This document shows positions 5,638 to 30,831 of a stretch of DNA of 32,000 nucleotides, one piece after another. Made by a program: the position numbers and the translations under genes. This DNA comes from Candidatus Saccharimonadota bacterium. Lineage in GTDB: Bacteria; Patescibacteriota; Saccharimonadia; Saccharimonadales; UBA4665. Location: the NCBI GenBank assembly GCA_002952755.1, contig CP025011.1, positions 1,200,001 through 1,232,000 of the forward strand. Reading direction: 5' to 3'. Under the pieces are notes generated by a model. It made no database searches. It saw nothing but the letters and a program-made list of their open reading frames with translations, and was not told the origin of the DNA. Each line of letters begins with the position of its first letter. Within the stretch, counting starts at the first letter, position 1.

Positions 5638-5706
5638 ATGCATGCAATTATACGTCAAATCTCGCCTTACCTTCTAACACTCTCCGTGTATGCACCTCTT
5701 TTACGG

Positions 5707-5819
5707 AGATTTCTAGCCACCCTCCTTCCCCAAGTAGAGTCAAGCGTAGTGCAACCAGACCAGCTTTAGCTGGCCTGCGTGTAACGCTCTACTTGGGGAA
5801 GGAGGGTGGCTAGAAATCT
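5707..5819. repeat. Structured palindromic element, copy A (33-bp perfect stem plus 47-nt core loop)
   Basis: 5707..5739 (agatttctagccaccctccttccccaagtagag) is the exact reverse complement of 5787..5819. The 47-nt loop contains an inner hairpin, cagaccagc-ttta-gctggcctg. The reverse complement of 5730..5796 matches 30653..30719 at 62/67 positions. Confidence 0.9.
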
Positions 5820-5839
5820 AGTATACTTATAGGCAGCAT

Positions 5840-7027
5840 ATGGTATATAAAAGTATTCTGATATTGGGACGCCAACCGGCAATTGGCCGCGCCGAGCTTG
5901 AAAGTCTGTATGGCGGTAGGCATCTTGAACCTATCAGTCAGCAGGCTATAGCCCTGGATATTGAGCCCGATACCATTGCCTTTGGGAGACTCGGCGGCAG
6001 TATCCGATTGGGCGTCGTACTTGCTGAAATACCAAGCAAGGAGTGGTCAGTATTAGCACAATATGTAGCCAAAATATTGCCAGAACGGTTGCGCCAGTTA
6101 CCCCAGGAAGGCAAGCTAAAACTCGGCCTCAGCGTCTTTGATAGTACAGTCGACAACCGCCAGCTATTGCGTACCGGGCTGGAATTAAAAAAGATTTGTA
6201 AGAAAACTGGACGCTCAGTACGCCTCGTTCCTAATACCGAGCCAGCGCTCAGCAGCGCTCAAGTCTTACACAATCAACTCACCGGGGATCTTGGCATCGA
6301 ATTCTTGCTTGTTCATAGCGGTACTAAGACGATTCTAGCGCAAACCACTGCCGTCCAGGACATTACCGCCTATGCAGACCGCGATCAAAATCGCCCTAAG
6401 CGAGATGCGCGCGTGGGTATGCTGCCACCCAAGCTGGCGCAGATCATCATCAATCTAGCCACCGGGCTACTAGAGCCGACGAACGCGCATGTCGTGCTCG
6501 ACCCTTTCTGCGGCACAGGGGTAATATTGCAGGAAGCAGCGCTCATGGGCTACGGTAGCTACGGCACAGACCTCGAGCCACGGATGATCGACTACTCTCG
6601 GGCAAATCTGGAATGGCTTGCCGGGCGCCACCATAGCCCACCCTCTACTCTAGAAATTGGTGACGCCACAACGTTTAGCTGGCAGCACCCCTTCTCGGCC
6701 GTCGCAGCTGAAACGTACTTGGGCAGACCGCTCAGCACTTGGCCTAATCCCGAAACCCTCCAAGAAGTAAGGAGCACCTGCAACACCATCCTCGAAAAAT
6801 ATCTGCAGAATATAGCTAGTCAAATACCGAGTGGTTTGCGTCTCTGTTTGGCCATACCGGCCTGGAAAGCTCCAAATGGGCACATTCACCACCTTCCACT
6901 TCTTGACCATCTCGAGAAAATGGGGTACAATCGAGTAAGTTTTGAGTGTGCTGAGGCTCACGATCTGGTCTACTATCGGCCAGAGCAAATTGTAGCCCGC
7001 GAGCTGCTCGTAATAACAAGGAAATAA
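5840..7027 (+). CDS. Putative RNA methyltransferase-fold protein (UPF0020/Trm11-RlmL-like) with an N-terminal THUMP-like region
   Basis: SAM motif I is VLDPFCGTGVILQEAALMG and motif II is YGTDLEP. At the expected motif IV position the sequence reads AAETYLGRP instead of (D/N)PPY. The N-terminal region resembles the RNA-binding modules of this family only loosely. Confidence 0.6.
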   Translation: MVYKSILILGRQPAIGRAELESLYGGRHLEPISQQAIALDIEPDTIAFGRLGGSIRLGVVLAEIPSKEWSVLAQYVAKILPERLRQLPQEGKLKLGLSVFDSTVDNRQLLRTGLELKKICKKTGRSVRLVPNTEPALSSAQVLHNQLTGDLGIEFLLVHSGTKTILAQTTAVQDITAYADRDQNRPKRDARVGMLPPKLAQIIINLATGLLEPTNAHVVLDPFCGTGVILQEAALMGYGSYGTDLEPRMIDYSRANLEWLAGRHHSPPSTLEIGDATTFSWQHPFSAVAAETYLGRPLSTWPNPETLQEVRSTCNTILEKYLQNIASQIPSGLRLCLAIPAWKAPNGHIHHLPLLDHLEKMGYNRVSFECAEAHDLVYYRPEQIVARELLVITRK

Positions 7028-8641: not shown

Positions 8642-9052
8642 CTAGGTTAAATGTTTCTTGATGCGATCAATGACATCGGTAATGACTACTTGTGATTTTA
8701 CCAAGTAATCGTCTACACCCAGGGCTTCGGCTCGCTTCCGATCAGCGTCTTGACTGAGCGCGGTGAGCATGATGATCTTGAGGTTGGCGGTTTCTGGTGT
8801 GTTGCGTAAGATATCTAAGACATCGAAGCCGCTCACCTTGGGCATCATGACGTCGAGTAAAACGAGGTCAGGCTTGTAGCTAATTGCAGCCGCTAAGGCG
8901 TCCTCCCCATTGGCTACCCGCCGAACGTCGAAGCCTTCAGCTTGGAGTCGGACTAGATATACACCTGCGAGGGCGTCATCGTCCTCAACAAAAAGAATAC
9001 GCTTTGGATGCAAAAGGGGTTGCGGCGTGCCCTGAAGAGCGCTATTATCCAT
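8642..9052 (-). CDS. Single-domain response regulator (CheY-like receiver), canonical
   Basis: The motifs ILFVEDDD, PDLVLLDVMMP (phospho-acceptor Asp), IIMLTA (Thr) and DDYLVKS (Lys) are all present. There is no output domain. Confidence 0.9.
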   Translation of the reverse strand: MDNSALQGTPQPLLHPKRILFVEDDDALAGVYLVRLQAEGFDVRRVANGEDALAAAISYKPDLVLLDVMMPKVSGFDVLDILRNTPETANLKIIMLTALSQDADRKRAEALGVDDYLVKSQVVITDVIDRIKKHLT

Positions 9053-9075
9053 GCCTTAACGCTACAGCAAGCTTC

Positions 9076-10677
9076 CTACTTTTGCAACAAGCTAGCTATA
9101 AAGCCGCGGAACATAGGATGCGCACGGTTTGGCCGCGATTTGAATTCAGGATGAAATTGACTAGCCACAAAGAACGGATGATTTGTAGCCTCAATAATTT
9201 CTACCAAATTACCATCCGGGCTCAAGCCGGCCGGCCGGATGCCCCAAGATTCGTACTGATCCCGATACTCGTTATTACACTCATAGCGGTGGCGGTGGCG
9301 TTCGATGATAGCCGTAGTACCATATAGTTTAGCCACACTACTGCCCGCCTGGATCTTACAAGGGTAATCACCAAGGCGCATCGTGCCGCCAGTATTCTCC
9401 TTGCCTGCCTGTCCGGCCATCGTACTAATTACGAGGTGTTTACTTTTAGGGCTAAGCTCCTCAGTTGTTGCGCCAGTTACGCCAGCATTACGGGCCGCAG
9501 CGATAACGCCCATCTGTAGCCCTAAACAAATGCCGAGGTAGGGCACTTTATGCTCAAGGGCATACTGCGCAGCGGCAATCTTGCCTTCCAGACCGCGCGT
9601 ACCAAACCCGCCGGGCACCACTATTCCATCTATGCCTTTAAGAACCGAGGCGACATCCTCGGCTTTCTCGATAGATTCAGCGTCAATCCATTCGATAGCA
9701 ATATCAGCGTCATTAGCCCAGGCTCCAGCGCGAAGCGCCTCAAATACCGACATGTATGTATCCTGGTTGTCGAGATACTTAGCTACGACGCCTACGGTGA
9801 TTTGGTGTTTATGTTTCCCTAGGGCGTGATTCACCATCCTAGCCCAATCGGATAAATCCGGTTGCTTCGTGGTGAGGCCCAGTTGCTTGCAAATGACGTT
9901 GGCAATACCCGTCTCTTCGAGCGTCAAAGGCACCTGGTAAATGCTGGGCGCATTCGGTAGTAATGCGATAGCCTCCTCAGCTACACCACTAAAAAGACTA
10001 AGCTTAGCCTTAGCTCCCGGATTGGTCGGCTCTTCGCTACGTCCTACAAGAATGTTCGGACTAATACCAAGGCCGCGTAAGTCGCGTACAGCGTTCTGAG
10101 CCGGCTTGGTCTTAGTCTCCTTGCTCGCTCCCAGGTATGGCAAATAAACCACATGGACATACAGGCAGTTTTCTAGTCCAACGCGCATACCCAGCTCGCG
10201 AATGGCTTCAATAAAACTCTGACTTTCAATATCCCCTACTGTGCCACCGATCTCAACAATGTGCACATCGAAGCCAGCGCCAGCATCTTGGATAAATTTT
10301 TGGATCGCAGCAGTTAAGTGAGGTACAATCTGGACATCCTCACCCTGATACTTCCCGGCCCGTTCGTCTTCAATCACACGTAAAAAAACGCGCCCGTTCA
10401 TCAGAGAACTGGCGCTGGTTAATTCTTCATCGATAAAACGCTCGTAATGACCGAGGTCGAGATCGGTTTCGGCTCCGTCCCTTGTTACAAAACATTCGCC
10501 ATGCTCGCGGGGGTTAAGGGTACCGGCATCGACATTCAGGTAGGGGTCACACTTTTGAAGGTTAACGCGGAGACCGCGGGCTTTTAGCAGATTGGCGATG
10601 GAGGCTGCGGTAATACCCTTTCCGAGTCCCGAAAGGACGCCTCCTGTCACAAAAATATATTTCGTCGCCCTTGGCAC
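9076..10677 (-). CDS. pyrG: CTP synthase
   Basis: It has the N-terminal synthetase motif KYIFVTGGVLSGLGKGI and a C-terminal glutaminase domain with LGICLGLQ and QFHPEF. It uses a GTG start with a GAGGAGG SD about 9 nt upstream. Confidence 0.97.
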   Translation of the reverse strand: MPRATKYIFVTGGVLSGLGKGITAASIANLLKARGLRVNLQKCDPYLNVDAGTLNPREHGECFVTRDGAETDLDLGHYERFIDEELTSASSLMNGRVFLRVIEDERAGKYQGEDVQIVPHLTAAIQKFIQDAGAGFDVHIVEIGGTVGDIESQSFIEAIRELGMRVGLENCLYVHVVYLPYLGASKETKTKPAQNAVRDLRGLGISPNILVGRSEEPTNPGAKAKLSLFSGVAEEAIALLPNAPSIYQVPLTLEETGIANVICKQLGLTTKQPDLSDWARMVNHALGKHKHQITVGVVAKYLDNQDTYMSVFEALRAGAWANDADIAIEWIDAESIEKAEDVASVLKGIDGIVVPGGFGTRGLEGKIAAAQYALEHKVPYLGICLGLQMGVIAAARNAGVTGATTEELSPKSKHLVISTMAGQAGKENTGGTMRLGDYPCKIQAGSSVAKLYGTTAIIERHRHRYECNNEYRDQYESWGIRPAGLSPDGNLVEIIEATNHPFFVASQFHPEFKSRPNRAHPMFRGFIASLLQK

Positions 10678-18350: not shown

Positions 18351-20957
18351 CTACTTGCGCTTACGGCCTTGGGCCTTGCGCTGTCGTTCGGCTTTGCGGG
18401 CCTTTTTGCGCATCACAGGTTGCTTCTTGACTGCTGCTTGATTGGCTTCTTTTGCCCTAAAGTCAGCTTCTTCAAACTCATCGTCGCCCGTCAGAATGCG
18501 ATCGGCATTGCTAATAGATTGACGGGCAGCCAGCGTTAATTCAGTTTCGGCGGGTTGCTCGAGCTGAGCAAGGTCGATAGGCTCAGCATGGAAGACCAAA
18601 CGAATAACTTCTTGGCGCAGGTTGGCCTGCATTTCTTCAAACAGCAATTGGCCCTGACGACGATATTCTACCAACGGATCGCGCTGTCCAATACTAATCC
18701 AGTGGATTCCTTCACGCAGGTGGTCCATATTTTCCAAGTGTTGCATCCATAGATTGTCCAGAACCTGTAAATAAATGTCCCGCTCCACTTTACGCATAAT
18801 TTCTTTTGTAAATGCCGCTTCGCGTCCATCGTACAGTTCGTACGCTTCCTTAATTAGAACATCGCTAAACTTATCTGCACCGGTGTCAAATAGCCGATCC
18901 AGACTCGGCTCATCAAGCGGAAATGTCTCGCGCACGATAGACTCAAATTGCTCGGTCAACAAATCTGGCGAGGCGGCGAGCATTCGAGCCTGCTCTTCAA
19001 TAAAAATCTTAACCCGCTTGCTGATATCATCGCTCTTTAAAATTTCCTTACGCATGGCATATGTCGCCTTGCGGTGACGGTTCATCACATCATCATACTG
19101 AACGACATTTTTACGCTGGTCGAAATGGAACCCTTCCACTTTCTTTTGGGCACCTTCCAGCGAGCGGGAGATCAAACGGTTCTCGATTGGCGTCTCGTCA
19201 TCCACTTTCAGACGATCCATGAGGCCTGCGATACGCTCACCACCGAATATACGCATCAGATCGTCTTCGGCACTCACAAAGAACTGGGTTACGCCAGGAT
19301 CCCCCTGTCGTCCTGCACGACCTCGAAGCTGATTATCAATACGGCGCGACTCATGACGCTCCGTGCCTAACACAAACAAACCACCCAGCTCCTTAACCTC
19401 CTCATCAAGCACGATGTCGGTACCACGACCAGCAATATTAGTAGCTAGCGTAACGGCACCTTTTTGCCCAGCACGCGCCACAATTGCCGCTTCTTTTTCG
19501 TTATTTTTGGCATTCAATACTTCATGAGGTACACCTGCCTTAGTCAGCATGCTGCCAAGCAACTCGTTCTTTTCGATTGAGACTGTGCCGAGTAGCACCG
19601 GTTGTCCCTTAGTGTGCAGCATTTTTACTTCTTTGACTATAGCCTTAAACTTACCCTTCTCGTTTTTGTAAATACGGTCCGGACGGTCATTGCGGGCCAA
19701 TTTACGGTTGGCTGGTACTTCTACAACGTCGAGTTTATAGATTTGGTGGAATTCCTCGGCCTCAGTTACTGCCGTCCCCGTCATGCCAGACAGTCTTTCA
19801 TACAAACGGAAATAATTCTGAAACGAAATAGTTGCCAATGTCATGCTTTCTTGCTGAACTTCGACCCCTTCCTTGGCCTCTATTGCTTGATGCAAGCCCT
19901 CGTTATAGCGTCGACCCTTTAGCAAGCGGCCTGTGAATTCGTCAACGATCACGATTTCGCCGTCATTGGTAGCTACGTAATCTTTATCACGCTTAAAGAG
20001 CGCCTGAGCACGAAGCGCCTGTTCAAGGTGATAAATGGTGCGGATGTTTTCGGTGGCATAGAGGTTGCTCACACCCAACACTTTTTCTACTTTGTCGACA
20101 CCCTTCTCGGTGAGGATAACTGTCTTGCGCTTTTCGTCTACCTCATAATGCTTTTCGTTCTCAAGTTGGCGAGCTACTTTAGCGAACTGCGCATAGGCGT
20201 TACCGCTCGTCACGCTGGGTGCGGAAATAATTAAGGGGGTGCGGGCTTCGTCGATCAAAATAGAGTCGGCTTCGTCCACAATAGCAAAGTGCAGATCACG
20301 CTGCGCAAGCTGATCTACTTCGCGGACCATATTGTCGCGTAAGTAGTCGAACCCAAACTCATTATTAGTGCCATACGTAATGTCAGCGGTGTACGCTTCG
20401 CGGCGTGATGCCGGCTTGAGGTGACGAAAACGGTCGTCCTCGTGCTCAGTGTTTGTAAAATCTGGGTCGTAAATATAGGAATGATCAGCAATAATAACGC
20501 CAACCGTCATCCCCAGGAATGAATAGACCTTCCCCATCCAGCCCGCATCGCGCTGGGCCAGATACTCGTTTACTGTAACTACGTGCGCACCTTTTCCAGT
20601 GAGCGCATTCAGATACACGGGCAGCGTCGCCACCAACGTCTTACCTTCACCCGTCTTCATCTCGGCCACGTTACCTTCATGCAAAACCATGCCACCAATA
20701 AGTTGGACGTCGAAATGACGTAAGCCTATTGTTCTGTCGGCTGCCTCGCGCATGACTGCAAAAGCATCGGGCAGTATCTTATCAAGACTTTCTTTTTTGA
20801 GGCGCTTTTTGAGTACGCCCGTTTGCTCCTTGAGTTTACTGTCGGACATCTTCTTATAGGTATCGGCTACCGCGTTCACCTCGCGGACGCGCTTTTTGAG
20901 GCGCTTCACGGTGCGTGCTTGCGGATCACCAAGCAATTTCTTTAGCAGACCATTCAT
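18351..20957 (-). CDS. secA: Preprotein translocase ATPase SecA
   Basis: Walker A MKTGEGKT and the DEAD-like FAIVDEADSILIDEARTPLIIS are present, along with TNMAGRGTDI-like TNIAGRGTDI and RGRAGRQGDPG. It has a basic C-terminal tail without a Cys-rich zinc motif. Confidence 0.98.
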   Translation of the reverse strand: MNGLLKKLLGDPQARTVKRLKKRVREVNAVADTYKKMSDSKLKEQTGVLKKRLKKESLDKILPDAFAVMREAADRTIGLRHFDVQLIGGMVLHEGNVAEMKTGEGKTLVATLPVYLNALTGKGAHVVTVNEYLAQRDAGWMGKVYSFLGMTVGVIIADHSYIYDPDFTNTEHEDDRFRHLKPASRREAYTADITYGTNNEFGFDYLRDNMVREVDQLAQRDLHFAIVDEADSILIDEARTPLIISAPSVTSGNAYAQFAKVARQLENEKHYEVDEKRKTVILTEKGVDKVEKVLGVSNLYATENIRTIYHLEQALRAQALFKRDKDYVATNDGEIVIVDEFTGRLLKGRRYNEGLHQAIEAKEGVEVQQESMTLATISFQNYFRLYERLSGMTGTAVTEAEEFHQIYKLDVVEVPANRKLARNDRPDRIYKNEKGKFKAIVKEVKMLHTKGQPVLLGTVSIEKNELLGSMLTKAGVPHEVLNAKNNEKEAAIVARAGQKGAVTLATNIAGRGTDIVLDEEVKELGGLFVLGTERHESRRIDNQLRGRAGRQGDPGVTQFFVSAEDDLMRIFGGERIAGLMDRLKVDDETPIENRLISRSLEGAQKKVEGFHFDQRKNVVQYDDVMNRHRKATYAMRKEILKSDDISKRVKIFIEEQARMLAASPDLLTEQFESIVRETFPLDEPSLDRLFDTGADKFSDVLIKEAYELYDGREAAFTKEIMRKVERDIYLQVLDNLWMQHLENMDHLREGIHWISIGQRDPLVEYRRQGQLLFEEMQANLRQEVIRLVFHAEPIDLAQLEQPAETELTLAARQSISNADRILTGDDEFEEADFRAKEANQAAVKKQPVMRKKARKAERQRKAQGRKRK

Positions 20958-21066
20958 GATCGTATGACTCCCTCTTTCGTCGTTTTCGGCTTACGACATA
21001 TTGTAACCCGAACTACCAGAGAAAACGAGTCTAATATGGTGTAAAAATGATTGCCAAAACTATTTT

Positions 21067-21429
21067 TCAGGCCTCCTGGTGCTTGAGGCGAGCGAGCAGT
21101 CGCTGCCGCTTTTTAGGATCGGCGTGCATTTCTTTGTATTTATGCAGCTGCTTCTTTAGTTTTTCCTCAACTATATCGATAGCGGCGTACATATTAATGG
21201 TTGTTTCGCTCAGCGTCAGTACTTCATGTGGCAAGTGCATAATAACCTCGCACGTCCGGATTTGTTTATCTTTTGCCTTTCCCTCTTTGAGTTTTACTTC
21301 AGCATGTACGCTATCCCGTGCGCGCCGGGGAACGTACTTGTCCAGCCGCCCAATCTTTTTCAGGACGTAGCGCCGCAGGTCGTCGCCTACAGGCATGTGA
21401 ACACCATCAATTTCGAGTTTCTGGATCAT
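21067..21429 (-). CDS. hpf: Ribosome hibernation promoting factor / RaiA family (short form)
   Basis: A 120-aa sigma54-modulation/S30EA-type sequence (GVHMPVGDDLRRYVLKKIGRLDKY ... MYAAIDIVEEKLKKQL). Its position upstream of secA matches the arrangement in Firmicutes. Confidence 0.85.
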   Translation of the reverse strand: MIQKLEIDGVHMPVGDDLRRYVLKKIGRLDKYVPRRARDSVHAEVKLKEGKAKDKQIRTCEVIMHLPHEVLTLSETTINMYAAIDIVEEKLKKQLHKYKEMHADPKKRQRLLARLKHQEA

Positions 21430-26410: not shown

Positions 26411-27226
26411 CTAACGCACTCCTGTTGCGACCTGCCATGCAACTGCGCTAGCCATAGCAAAACCGAGTAGCAGATACATCTTTTCTGTATAGACAACGTT
26501 CGTCCATTGGCCACGCCCTTTCCACCGGAAAGCGGTAGCCATAACAAACGCTCCCGAGAATATGAAGGTACTCGCATAGACTGCCCAAAGATACGCGGGC
26601 ACGTGACCACCATATGCAGCAGCAGCTACAACACTCTTTATAATAACCACCCACGGCATAACTGCGCCCACTCCAGCCAACACCGCCAGCAACTTATGCA
26701 AACCAGAGCGATTCGCACCGAGTAGCTCTACCGACAATGCAAGAAGTGAGGCCAAAAATACACTCATCCATATAAAACTAAGTGTTGTGAGATCATTCAG
26801 GCCACTCATAAGGCTAAGTGTCGTGAGTATCAGACCGCCGCCAAGACCAATCGTCAACCATCGTATCTTATTCACTCCACGCTCCAAGCTCGCCAGGTAT
26901 TTCTTTTTACCTGAAGTAGCAGCGTACATATGCCCGGCTGCAAAAATAAGCAAGAAAGCGACCGCCACGTACGACAAGCGTACATCAAATAAATGCCGCG
27001 TTGCCGTCGCGAGCACCTGGTGCTTATTGGCCGTGGTGGCAAGTTGGTCGACAGAGGGGTATCGCACTGTTATTGCTTCACTAAATTTATTGCCAACGAT
27101 TACCACACCTACGGCTTGCGCCGCTAGGAATAGCGCTGCTCTTAGATTCCATATACCTAATGTTTGTTGTTTTGCGGGCGCGACAACTGTCTCGCTCTTC
27201 TTATTCGTCGTTGCTTTTTTTGCCAT
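26411..27226 (-). CDS. Heliorhodopsin-family 7-TM protein apparently lacking the retinal-binding Lys
   Basis: It has seven TM helices. YLASLERGVNKIRWLTIGLGGG and RWKGRGQWTNVVYTEKMYLLLGFAMASAVAWQVATG align, from my memory of heliorhodopsin 48C12, to YSASLMKNQNIFRWVEYSLSSS and QYKGKGKWSNYLRGERAYIVLSLVAKSALAWQIFSG. The Schiff-base Lys position is Ala and the counterion Glu position is Thr. Confidence 0.7.
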   Translation of the reverse strand: MAKKATTNKKSETVVAPAKQQTLGIWNLRAALFLAAQAVGVVIVGNKFSEAITVRYPSVDQLATTANKHQVLATATRHLFDVRLSYVAVAFLLIFAAGHMYAATSGKKKYLASLERGVNKIRWLTIGLGGGLILTTLSLMSGLNDLTTLSFIWMSVFLASLLALSVELLGANRSGLHKLLAVLAGVGAVMPWVVIIKSVVAAAAYGGHVPAYLWAVYASTFIFSGAFVMATAFRWKGRGQWTNVVYTEKMYLLLGFAMASAVAWQVATGVR

Positions 27227-30634: not shown

Positions 30635-30737
30635 GACACCCATCTCCACTCTCCAAGTAGAGCGTTACACGCAGGCCGACTAAAGTCGGTCTGGTTGCAC
30701 TAAGCTTGACTCTACTTGGAGAGCTGAGATGGGTGTC
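30635..30737. repeat. Structured palindromic element, copy B (core inverted relative to copy A)
   Basis: The arms 30635..30646 / 30726..30737 and 30650..30662 / 30710..30722 are exact complements, separated by a 3x3 internal mismatch (cac / gct). The 47-nt loop at 30663..30709 equals the reverse complement of the copy A loop at 42/47 positions. Confidence 0.9.
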
Positions 30738-30748
30738 TAACTTAGCTA

Positions 30749-30777
30749 TTGACTAAATAGCATAAAGAGTGTACAAT
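30749..30777 (+). promoter_or_regulatory. Sigma70-type promoter of the surface-protein gene
   Basis: TTGACT (30749..30754) is followed by a 17-nt spacer and TACAAT (30772..30777). An AAGGAG SD lies upstream of the ATG at 30832. Confidence 0.65.
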
Positions 30778-30831
30778 TATTTTCATATCTCATTCGGAGC
30801 GAGAGACTTCGGGAGGGAGTAAGGAGTTCAT

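Follow-up and report, generated by a model that had tools for sequence, protein, structure and literature searches.

Small bacterial elements of the MITE kind, a class that includes Correia, RUP, ERIC and YPAL, are short (under ~200-300 bp) and non-coding, possess terminal inverted repeats, form a stem-loop over the whole element and lie in intergenic DNA near promoters (PMC2229807, PMC10969869). The Correia/NEMIS elements of Neisseria span ~100-155 bp, with terminal inverted repeats (TIRs) of ~24-26 bp and a conserved core, and they are intergenic, non-coding and often found at promoters (PMC2229807, PMC2649163, PMC10969869). YPAL/RU-2 of Yersinia, a small mobile sequence, is palindromic, is neither A+T-rich nor bounded by TA termini and targets sites at dyad symmetry (PMC2229807). 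RUP of Streptococcus pneumoniae, also with TIRs and intergenic, is ~107 bp long and inserts at TA; its ends resemble those of a resident IS, and its mobiliser is thought to be IS630-Spn1 (PMC2229807).

Genomes of the candidate phyla radiation are small and contain little mobile DNA, and descriptions of small palindromic mobile repeats from this group are very scarce. Our literature search found no report of repeats of the type described below in Saccharibacteria or Patescibacteria, and a search for MITEs in Patescibacteria returned nothing relevant. Here we analyse two palindromes, copies A and B, that lie 25 kb apart and in opposite orientations in a 32,000-nucleotide stretch of a Saccharimonadales genome (the window). 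With slightly better than even confidence, we read both as copies of a low-copy, MITE-like palindromic insertion element whose symmetry is kept at the DNA level.

Judged by analogy, the described systems that appear closest in form are Correia/NEMIS and YPAL/RU-2. With Correia/NEMIS the element shares its size, TIRs, conserved core, whole-element stem-loop, non-coding character and intergenic position at promoters. It differs from Correia in that no sequence similarity was found, in that Correia exceeds 100 copies per genome and carries a TA duplication whereas two copies are known here, and in that the ends of the present element diverge more than its core. Like YPAL/RU-2, a published exception to the A+T-richness of MITEs, it is palindromic and not A+T-rich; unlike it, YPAL measures 168 bp, contains internal inverted repeats, has variable target-site duplications (TSDs) of 3-26 bp and is abundant. 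The resemblance to RUP lies in the length of ~100 nt, the TIRs and the intergenic location, but no TA is present to the left of copy B. The GTAG tetranucleotide is typical of REP heads, and the inner arm of our element contains GTAG within CCAAGTAGAG. Like REP/BIME sequences, the element is an extragenic palindrome; however, REP/BIME units are 20-40 nt long and highly abundant, whereas the present copies are 103-113 nt long, have a nested structure and are known from two sites. Assignment to a REP/RAYT system was rejected on account of the length, the number of copies known and the gene content of the 53 kb examined, in which neither a RAYT nor an IS200-like gene was seen.

Anatomy of the two copies

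The repeat finder assigned to copy A (5707-5819) two 33-nt arms (5707-5739 and 5787-5819) that are 100% complementary and 47 nt apart (inverted repeat I2), in agreement with the perfect 33-bp stem and 47-nt loop described in the first-pass annotation. In copy B (30635-30737), the arms are 28 nt long (30635-30662 and 30710-30737), 93% complementary and likewise 47 nt apart (I3). The copies also match each other as an inverted repeat of 73 nt (I1; 5727-5799 against 30650-30722, 90% complementary), and BLAST of the core gave 92.5% identity over 67 nt (62/67; 5730-5796 against 30719-30653), which reproduces the inverted recurrence of the core at 30653..30719 noted earlier. The features of both copies are as follows.

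5707..5819, unstranded: copy A, full palindrome, 113 nt (I2 and folds)
5716-5810 or 5717-5809, unstranded: alternative extent of copy A, if the outermost AGATTTCTAG/CTAGAAATCT is host DNA
5707..5739, unstranded: left arm of copy A, 33 nt, pyrimidine-rich on the + strand (I2)
5787..5819, unstranded: right arm of copy A, 33 nt, perfect complement to the left arm (I2)
5727..5799, + strand: core of copy A common to copy B, made up of the inner ~10-13 bp of each arm and the 47-nt quasi-palindromic loop (I1 and BLAST)
5756..5777, unstranded: central hairpin of copy A, CAGACCAGC-TTTA-GCTGGCCTG (fold and pair count)
30635..30737, unstranded: copy B, full palindrome, 103 nt, orientation opposite to that of A (I3)
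30635..30662, unstranded: left arm of copy B, 28 nt, two mismatches against the right arm (I3)
30710..30737, unstranded: right arm of copy B (I3 partner of the left arm)
30650..30722, - strand: core of copy B, reverse complement of the core of A (I1 and BLAST)
30672..30693, unstranded: central hairpin of copy B, CAGGCCGAC-TAAA-GTCGGTCTG, with two pair swaps relative to A (fold and pair count)

Three zones can be distinguished in each copy, running from a shared terminal tip (G-N-CACCC ... GGGTG-N-C, read by eye) through a variable middle stretch to the conserved inner part. The outer arms of A and B differ in sequence and each copy is nevertheless self-complementary; our alignments agree with the earlier description on this point, the arms of B being 93% complementary. 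The so-called 47-nt loop is itself a quasi-palindrome that pairs almost throughout, except for a 5-nt bulge (TCAAG), and ends in each copy in a hairpin of nine stem positions with a TTTA/TAAA loop. This nested hairpin had been described as 9 bp long, with two pair swaps between the copies that preserve pairing. The two swaps are present, in adjacent pairs (alignment columns 51/60 and 52/59). Of the nine stem positions, one reads as A·C, and so is mismatched, on the A(+)/B(-) strand, whereas the opposite strand has G·U there.

Both copies fold far more stably than shuffled sequences, with RNA fold z-scores of -14.8 and -14.3 for A and -9.3 and -10.6 for B (two strands each), and 0 of 200 shuffles folding as well. 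DNA parameters gave z-scores of -13.4 for A and -9.8 for B. The energies of the two strands are nearly equal (-82 / -85 kcal/mol in A and -63 / -64 kcal/mol in B). The G+C content of the element is 53-59%, compared to 49% for the window and 40-42% for the intergenic flanks, and hence it is not A+T-rich. Both copies are non-coding. The open reading frames crossing copy A reach at most 43 aa and most frames hold stops; the sole one touching copy B encodes 68 aa, out-of-frame and mostly inside the TrmB gene. A six-frame translation of both copies (concatenated) gave no match at E <= 10 against 5.8 billion proteins, a weak negative because very short reading frames are apparently not stored there.

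BLAST and a covariance model built from the two copies, the latter a check proposed with the first-pass annotation, recovered A and B alone in 135 kb from the same and related genomes, and a further ~20 kb of the same organism yielded no third copy. Exact-pattern scans for the core (a right-hand 21-mer and a left-hand pattern with 19 specified bases) gave 0 matches in 185,579 species genomes. In JGI metagenomes, a hairpin pattern with 18 specified bases had nine matches, all attributable to chance, with unrelated flanks. Three exact patterns gave 0 or chance matches in viral contigs, and blastn against plasmid and phage collections returned nothing meaningful. These negatives set no limit on the number of copies in the source genome.

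The Rfam scan, extended to E <= 10 around both copies, found 0 families at the gathering score, so the earlier remark that no known RNA family is recognised in the palindrome holds for Rfam. The best match below threshold, to the MIR1862 precursor, scored 40.7 bits where 84 are required. Plant microRNA-precursor models (MIR1862 and mir-6131) match copy A (5716-5811) on both strands with small E-values but with scores far below the gathering score, and we rejected these matches as a sub-threshold, generic-hairpin artefact; long perfect hairpins attract microRNA-precursor models, as copy A illustrates. No sigma-70-like promoter or intrinsic terminator was found to frame either copy, no terminator-like site overlaps either of them and no T-run follows either palindrome. 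An intrinsic (Rho-independent) terminator was ruled out by the missing T-run and by the position of A between divergent gene starts, in line with the earlier argument against a simple terminator role for A.

Neighbouring genes and empty sites in relatives

Copy A sits between the divergent starts of an LPG-synthase-like gene (- strand) and a Trm11-like methyltransferase gene (+ strand), and our gene calls thus agree with its earlier placement in a divergent promoter region. The spacer that holds copy B separates a TrmB-like regulator gene from a gene for a DUF11 surface protein. B is probably transcribed, as a 3' region, because it lies 36 nt past a stop codon. A promoter-like feature lies close to each copy.

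5822..5827, + strand: conserved -10-like TATACT box of the Trm11 gene, 2 nt past the right end of A; relatives without the element keep the site
30749..30777, + strand: promoter-like TTGACT-17-TACAAT of the DUF11 gene, 12 nt downstream of B; kept in element-free relatives

The LPG-synthase-like and Trm11-like genes (window 5640-5660 and 5820-5842) start 12-13 nt after conserved -10-like boxes and have no Shine-Dalgarno sequence, an arrangement that is kept in relatives; by their sequence, both genes appear leaderless. Since A is located upstream of both -10-like boxes and the genes look leaderless, we infer that A probably lies outside both flanking mRNAs.

Homologues of the Trm11-like methyltransferase are annotated as Candidatus Saccharimonadales, the nearest other protein being 73% identical. 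The neighbouring genes are of the housekeeping type (XseA, CTP synthase, SecA, L27, RF-1 and FtsEX). No transposase, integrase or reverse transcriptase was present among the called genes of the window, as had been reported from the first reading, nor among those of its ~10-kb extensions (~53 kb). The window also contains a heliorhodopsin gene (26411-27226, - strand; Pfam PF18761, Logan gene calls) that is conserved at loci L021 and L022 of relatives. Within a few kb before the window start there are genes for a protein with a KwaB domain (KwaB belongs to the Kiwa defence system) and for a PIF1-type helicase (L013 7587-8666 and 9957-11522); the KwaB neighbour is kept in the relative represented by L018.

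Compared to the 181-191 nt found here, the spacer between the LPG-synthase and Trm11 genes measures 64, 47 and 33 nt in three relatives that retain this divergent gene pair. The 113 nt of copy A account for this difference, and their removal restores the spacer size of the relatives. The -10-like boxes on both flanks are conserved (CAATTATACG, TATAAT on the minus strand, and (A)GTATACT), and the right end of A abuts the second of them. Similarly, the TrmB/DUF11 spacers of relatives are without B, and the promoter and 5' leader just downstream are near-identical. Both sites are thus empty in relatives at ~65-73% protein identity, with the flanking promoters conserved. Because the two copies are absent from orthologous and otherwise well-conserved spacers, the comparison shows them, as far as the alignments reach, to be lineage-specific insertions beside conserved promoters and not conserved regulatory elements. 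The genes between the A and B sites have the order and orientation seen in the relative with L018 and L021, so that the inverted copies mark no rearrangement, and a role as inversion marker or as the ends of a composite transposon was ruled out.

For the DUF11/CLIPPER-like gene, the near-identity of promoter and 5' leader extends to distant relatives (window 30738-30831; L021 6811-6927; L022 ~9050-9143; L023 1905-2015). The common pattern is TTGACT-17-TA(C/T)A(A/C)T, then CATATCTCATTCGGAG...GAGAG(A/C)CTTCG(G/A)GAGGGAGTAAGGAG, and it could be a conserved leader structure. Upstream of the DUF11 -35 box, the relatives have 19 nt (CTTTTTAACAAAAACATTG) that are missing from the window.

According to the MITE-like reading, each copy would consist of two long inverted ends joined head to head, and the joined inner ends would make up the quasi-palindromic loop and its central hairpin. 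Such an element would have entered two intergenic spacers beside promoters that are conserved in relatives, presumably mobilised by a transposase supplied in trans. The sizes of 113 and 103 nt, the non-coding sequence, the terminal inverted repeats with a whole-element stem-loop and the contrast of filled and empty sites are all traits of a MITE, but the G+C content of 53-59% departs from the usual A+T-richness. Further points stand against a MITE: the interior is conserved and the ends diverge more, the reverse of what MITEs usually show; no TSD is established at either copy; no transposase lies within about 53 kb; and only two copies and no parent IS are known. Copy A now lies directly against the -10 box of an apparently leaderless tRNA-methyltransferase gene, and it possibly displaces the region upstream of that box; copy B possibly adds a hairpin to the TrmB-like gene in its 3' region. 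Any effect on the neighbouring genes may be a side effect. Should this reading be confirmed, the element would mark recent genome flux in a Saccharimonadales genome that is, at 1.45 Mb, unusually large.

A contig break inside copy B

We examined Logan short-read contigs (k=31) of the same organism from three runs (loci L011, L012, L015, L016 and L017). The element breaks short-read assemblies at both sites. At A, the contigs end 30 nt into each arm, as expected for an inverted repeat of 33 bp, longer than k-1. At B, every contig on the left stops at 30680 and every contig on the right begins at 30673, giving an 8-nt overlap within the central hairpin.

30673..30680, + strand: 8-mer AGGCCGAC, left stem of the central hairpin of B; a putative direct repeat defined by the contig ends

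Several causes of the break at B were considered and rejected. The longest exact run shared by A and B is 25 nt, which is below 30 and discounts cross-similarity between the copies; loop inversion would break the contigs at 30662; an 8-nt tandem duplication would give an overlap of 9 nt; and the break points are not mirror-symmetric, as they would be for a hairpin-symmetric sequencing artefact. Because contigs run unbroken through the arm/loop boundary of B at 30662, we see no sign there of the loop inversion that an invertible switch (inverton) would produce; the 33-bp arms of A exceed k-1 and are uninformative on inversion. The position of the contig ends suggests a co-existing longer allele at B, with an insertion flanked by the 8-bp direct repeat. 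Such an allele might contain an IS within the hairpin, or it might be the full-length parent of B, which would then have arisen by deletion between the 8-bp repeats.

Mirrored differences and alternative readings

We aligned copy A (5716-5810) to the reverse complement of copy B and counted changes over a 43-pair structure. Of these pairs, 33 are invariant, 8 carry a change in both partners, none carries one in a single partner, and 2 cells are unpaired, bearing in mind that covariation from only two sequences has no statistical power. Among the 28 aligned arm pairs, 6 differ between the copies in both partners and none in a single partner; the one G·U pair occurs in copy B. A 4-nt indel between A and B is mirrored symmetrically in both arms. 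The first-pass annotation had taken the retained pairing as a sign of selection on structure, unlike the pattern of a decaying repeat. The compensated pattern that it described is correct and goes beyond chance, but the step from there to selection is not established, given that both copies are insertions and their strands fold alike; when two copies of a palindromic repeat differ by compensated changes in their stems, this alone is no proof of selection on RNA structure.

Because both strands fold equally, the arms contain a lone G·U and the indel is mirrored in both arms, the pattern looks like DNA-level symmetry more than stepwise RNA compensation, by which the mirrored 4-nt indel would be hard to obtain. 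We propose two ordinary mechanisms for the origin of this symmetry at the DNA level and prefer neither of them. One transposase might read both ends, so that the ends must match, with A and B derived from two sub-lineages. Alternatively, mismatches in a hairpin-prone palindrome might be corrected with one arm templating the other. Quasi-palindrome template-switch correction is a mutational mechanism known in E. coli and phage T4; it perfects imperfect palindromes and copies changes from arm to arm, leaving mirrored substitutions and indels without selection. It would yield mirrored changes such as those seen here, but it is a mechanism and not an element family. The mirror-symmetric divergence is a genuine curiosity.

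Readings as an RNA or as a functional DNA site are possible at lower probability than the MITE-like one. We consider it unlikely that the copies encode a structured non-coding or cis-regulatory RNA, the reading preferred in the first-pass annotation, in which selection on RNA pairing would maintain the long stem and the function would reside in the conserved core. The very stable folds (z = -9 to -15), the compensation of all differences in paired segments (8 on both sides, 0 on one side), a core 92% identical within a diverged outer stem, the G·U that takes the place of the A·C mismatch on the A(-)/B(+) strand and the probable transcription of B, 36 nt past a stop codon, speak for such an RNA. 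However, relatives with conserved promoters and leaders lack both copies in the orthologous spacers, and the two strands of each copy fold equally well. The lone G·U among the arm pairs and the indel mirrored in both arms also argue against an RNA, as do the finding of no promoter or terminator framing either copy, the position of A upstream of both -10-like boxes of leaderless-looking genes and thus probably outside both mRNAs, and the empty Rfam result; with two sequences, moreover, the compensation has no statistical power.

As a sub-variant of the MITE-like reading, the mobile unit might be the inner ~73-93 nt, the outermost arms being host DNA, either through insertion into or beside a dyad symmetry or through the making of an inverted copy of the flank. 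We regard this as quite unlikely. Beyond the shared G-N-CACCC tip, the palindrome of A extends ~9-10 bp further than that of B, and CTAG or TA flanks the inner element of A. The alignment with the relative L018 slightly prefers leaving AGATTTCTAGAAATCT, a 16-bp perfect palindrome, in place (54.5 vs 48.5), and the targets of YPAL/RU-2 span or adjoin dyad symmetry (PMC2229807). In contrast, the relative L019 prefers excision of all 113 nt (39 vs 28; ACGG|AGTATACT vs ACGC|AGTATACT), so that the outer boundary of A appears ambiguous between the alignments of the relatives. The CTAG or TA repeats at A are themselves palindromic and indistinguishable from an extension of the palindrome, and B is flanked by no direct repeats, with neither a dyad nor a TSD. 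The sub-variant also covers the outer 10 bp of A alone and leaves the mirrored differences in the remaining arm and the central hairpin unexplained.

Another group of readings, which we hold to be distinctly improbable, departs further from the MITE-like element. The copies might belong to a hairpin element that keeps its arms complementary by copying, for example through a single-stranded snap-back intermediate, with the core as its recognition site and the arms free to vary. They might otherwise be a lineage-specific structured RNA of Saccharimonadales. The putative longer allele at B could be the autonomous form or a hairpin-targeting IS.

Very improbable, in our estimation, is a DNA site with a host function (a cruciform, or a protein-binding palindrome such as a recombination site, an operator or a nucleoid-protein site) at which a protein would read the core and the arms would only pair: the perfect Watson-Crick palindromes of the arms with their strong DNA fold energies, the core kept between the copies, the place of A in a divergent promoter region and the 16-bp palindrome that would remain without the inner element, slightly favoured by one relative, are consistent with it, but relatives with the same genes and promoters do not have the site, the two loci share no function (LPG synthase/Trm11 vs TrmB-like regulator/DUF11 surface protein), the second relative favours excising the entire 113 nt and we identified no candidate binding protein.

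Other nested palindromes were observed in a relative (GCA_964476865.1), in a long non-coding stretch at L020 20430-21185. An outer arm there, TTCTACCCAAGGTAAC, is loosely like CCTTCCCCAAGTAGAG of the element, and the covariance model of A and B gives no match to the stretch. One of the palindromes has 46-nt arms (20670-20847) and another has 20-nt perfect arms (20930-21073) with an inner 18-bp stem, and the same stretch contains three copies of a CGTCATCCCGG-type repeat.
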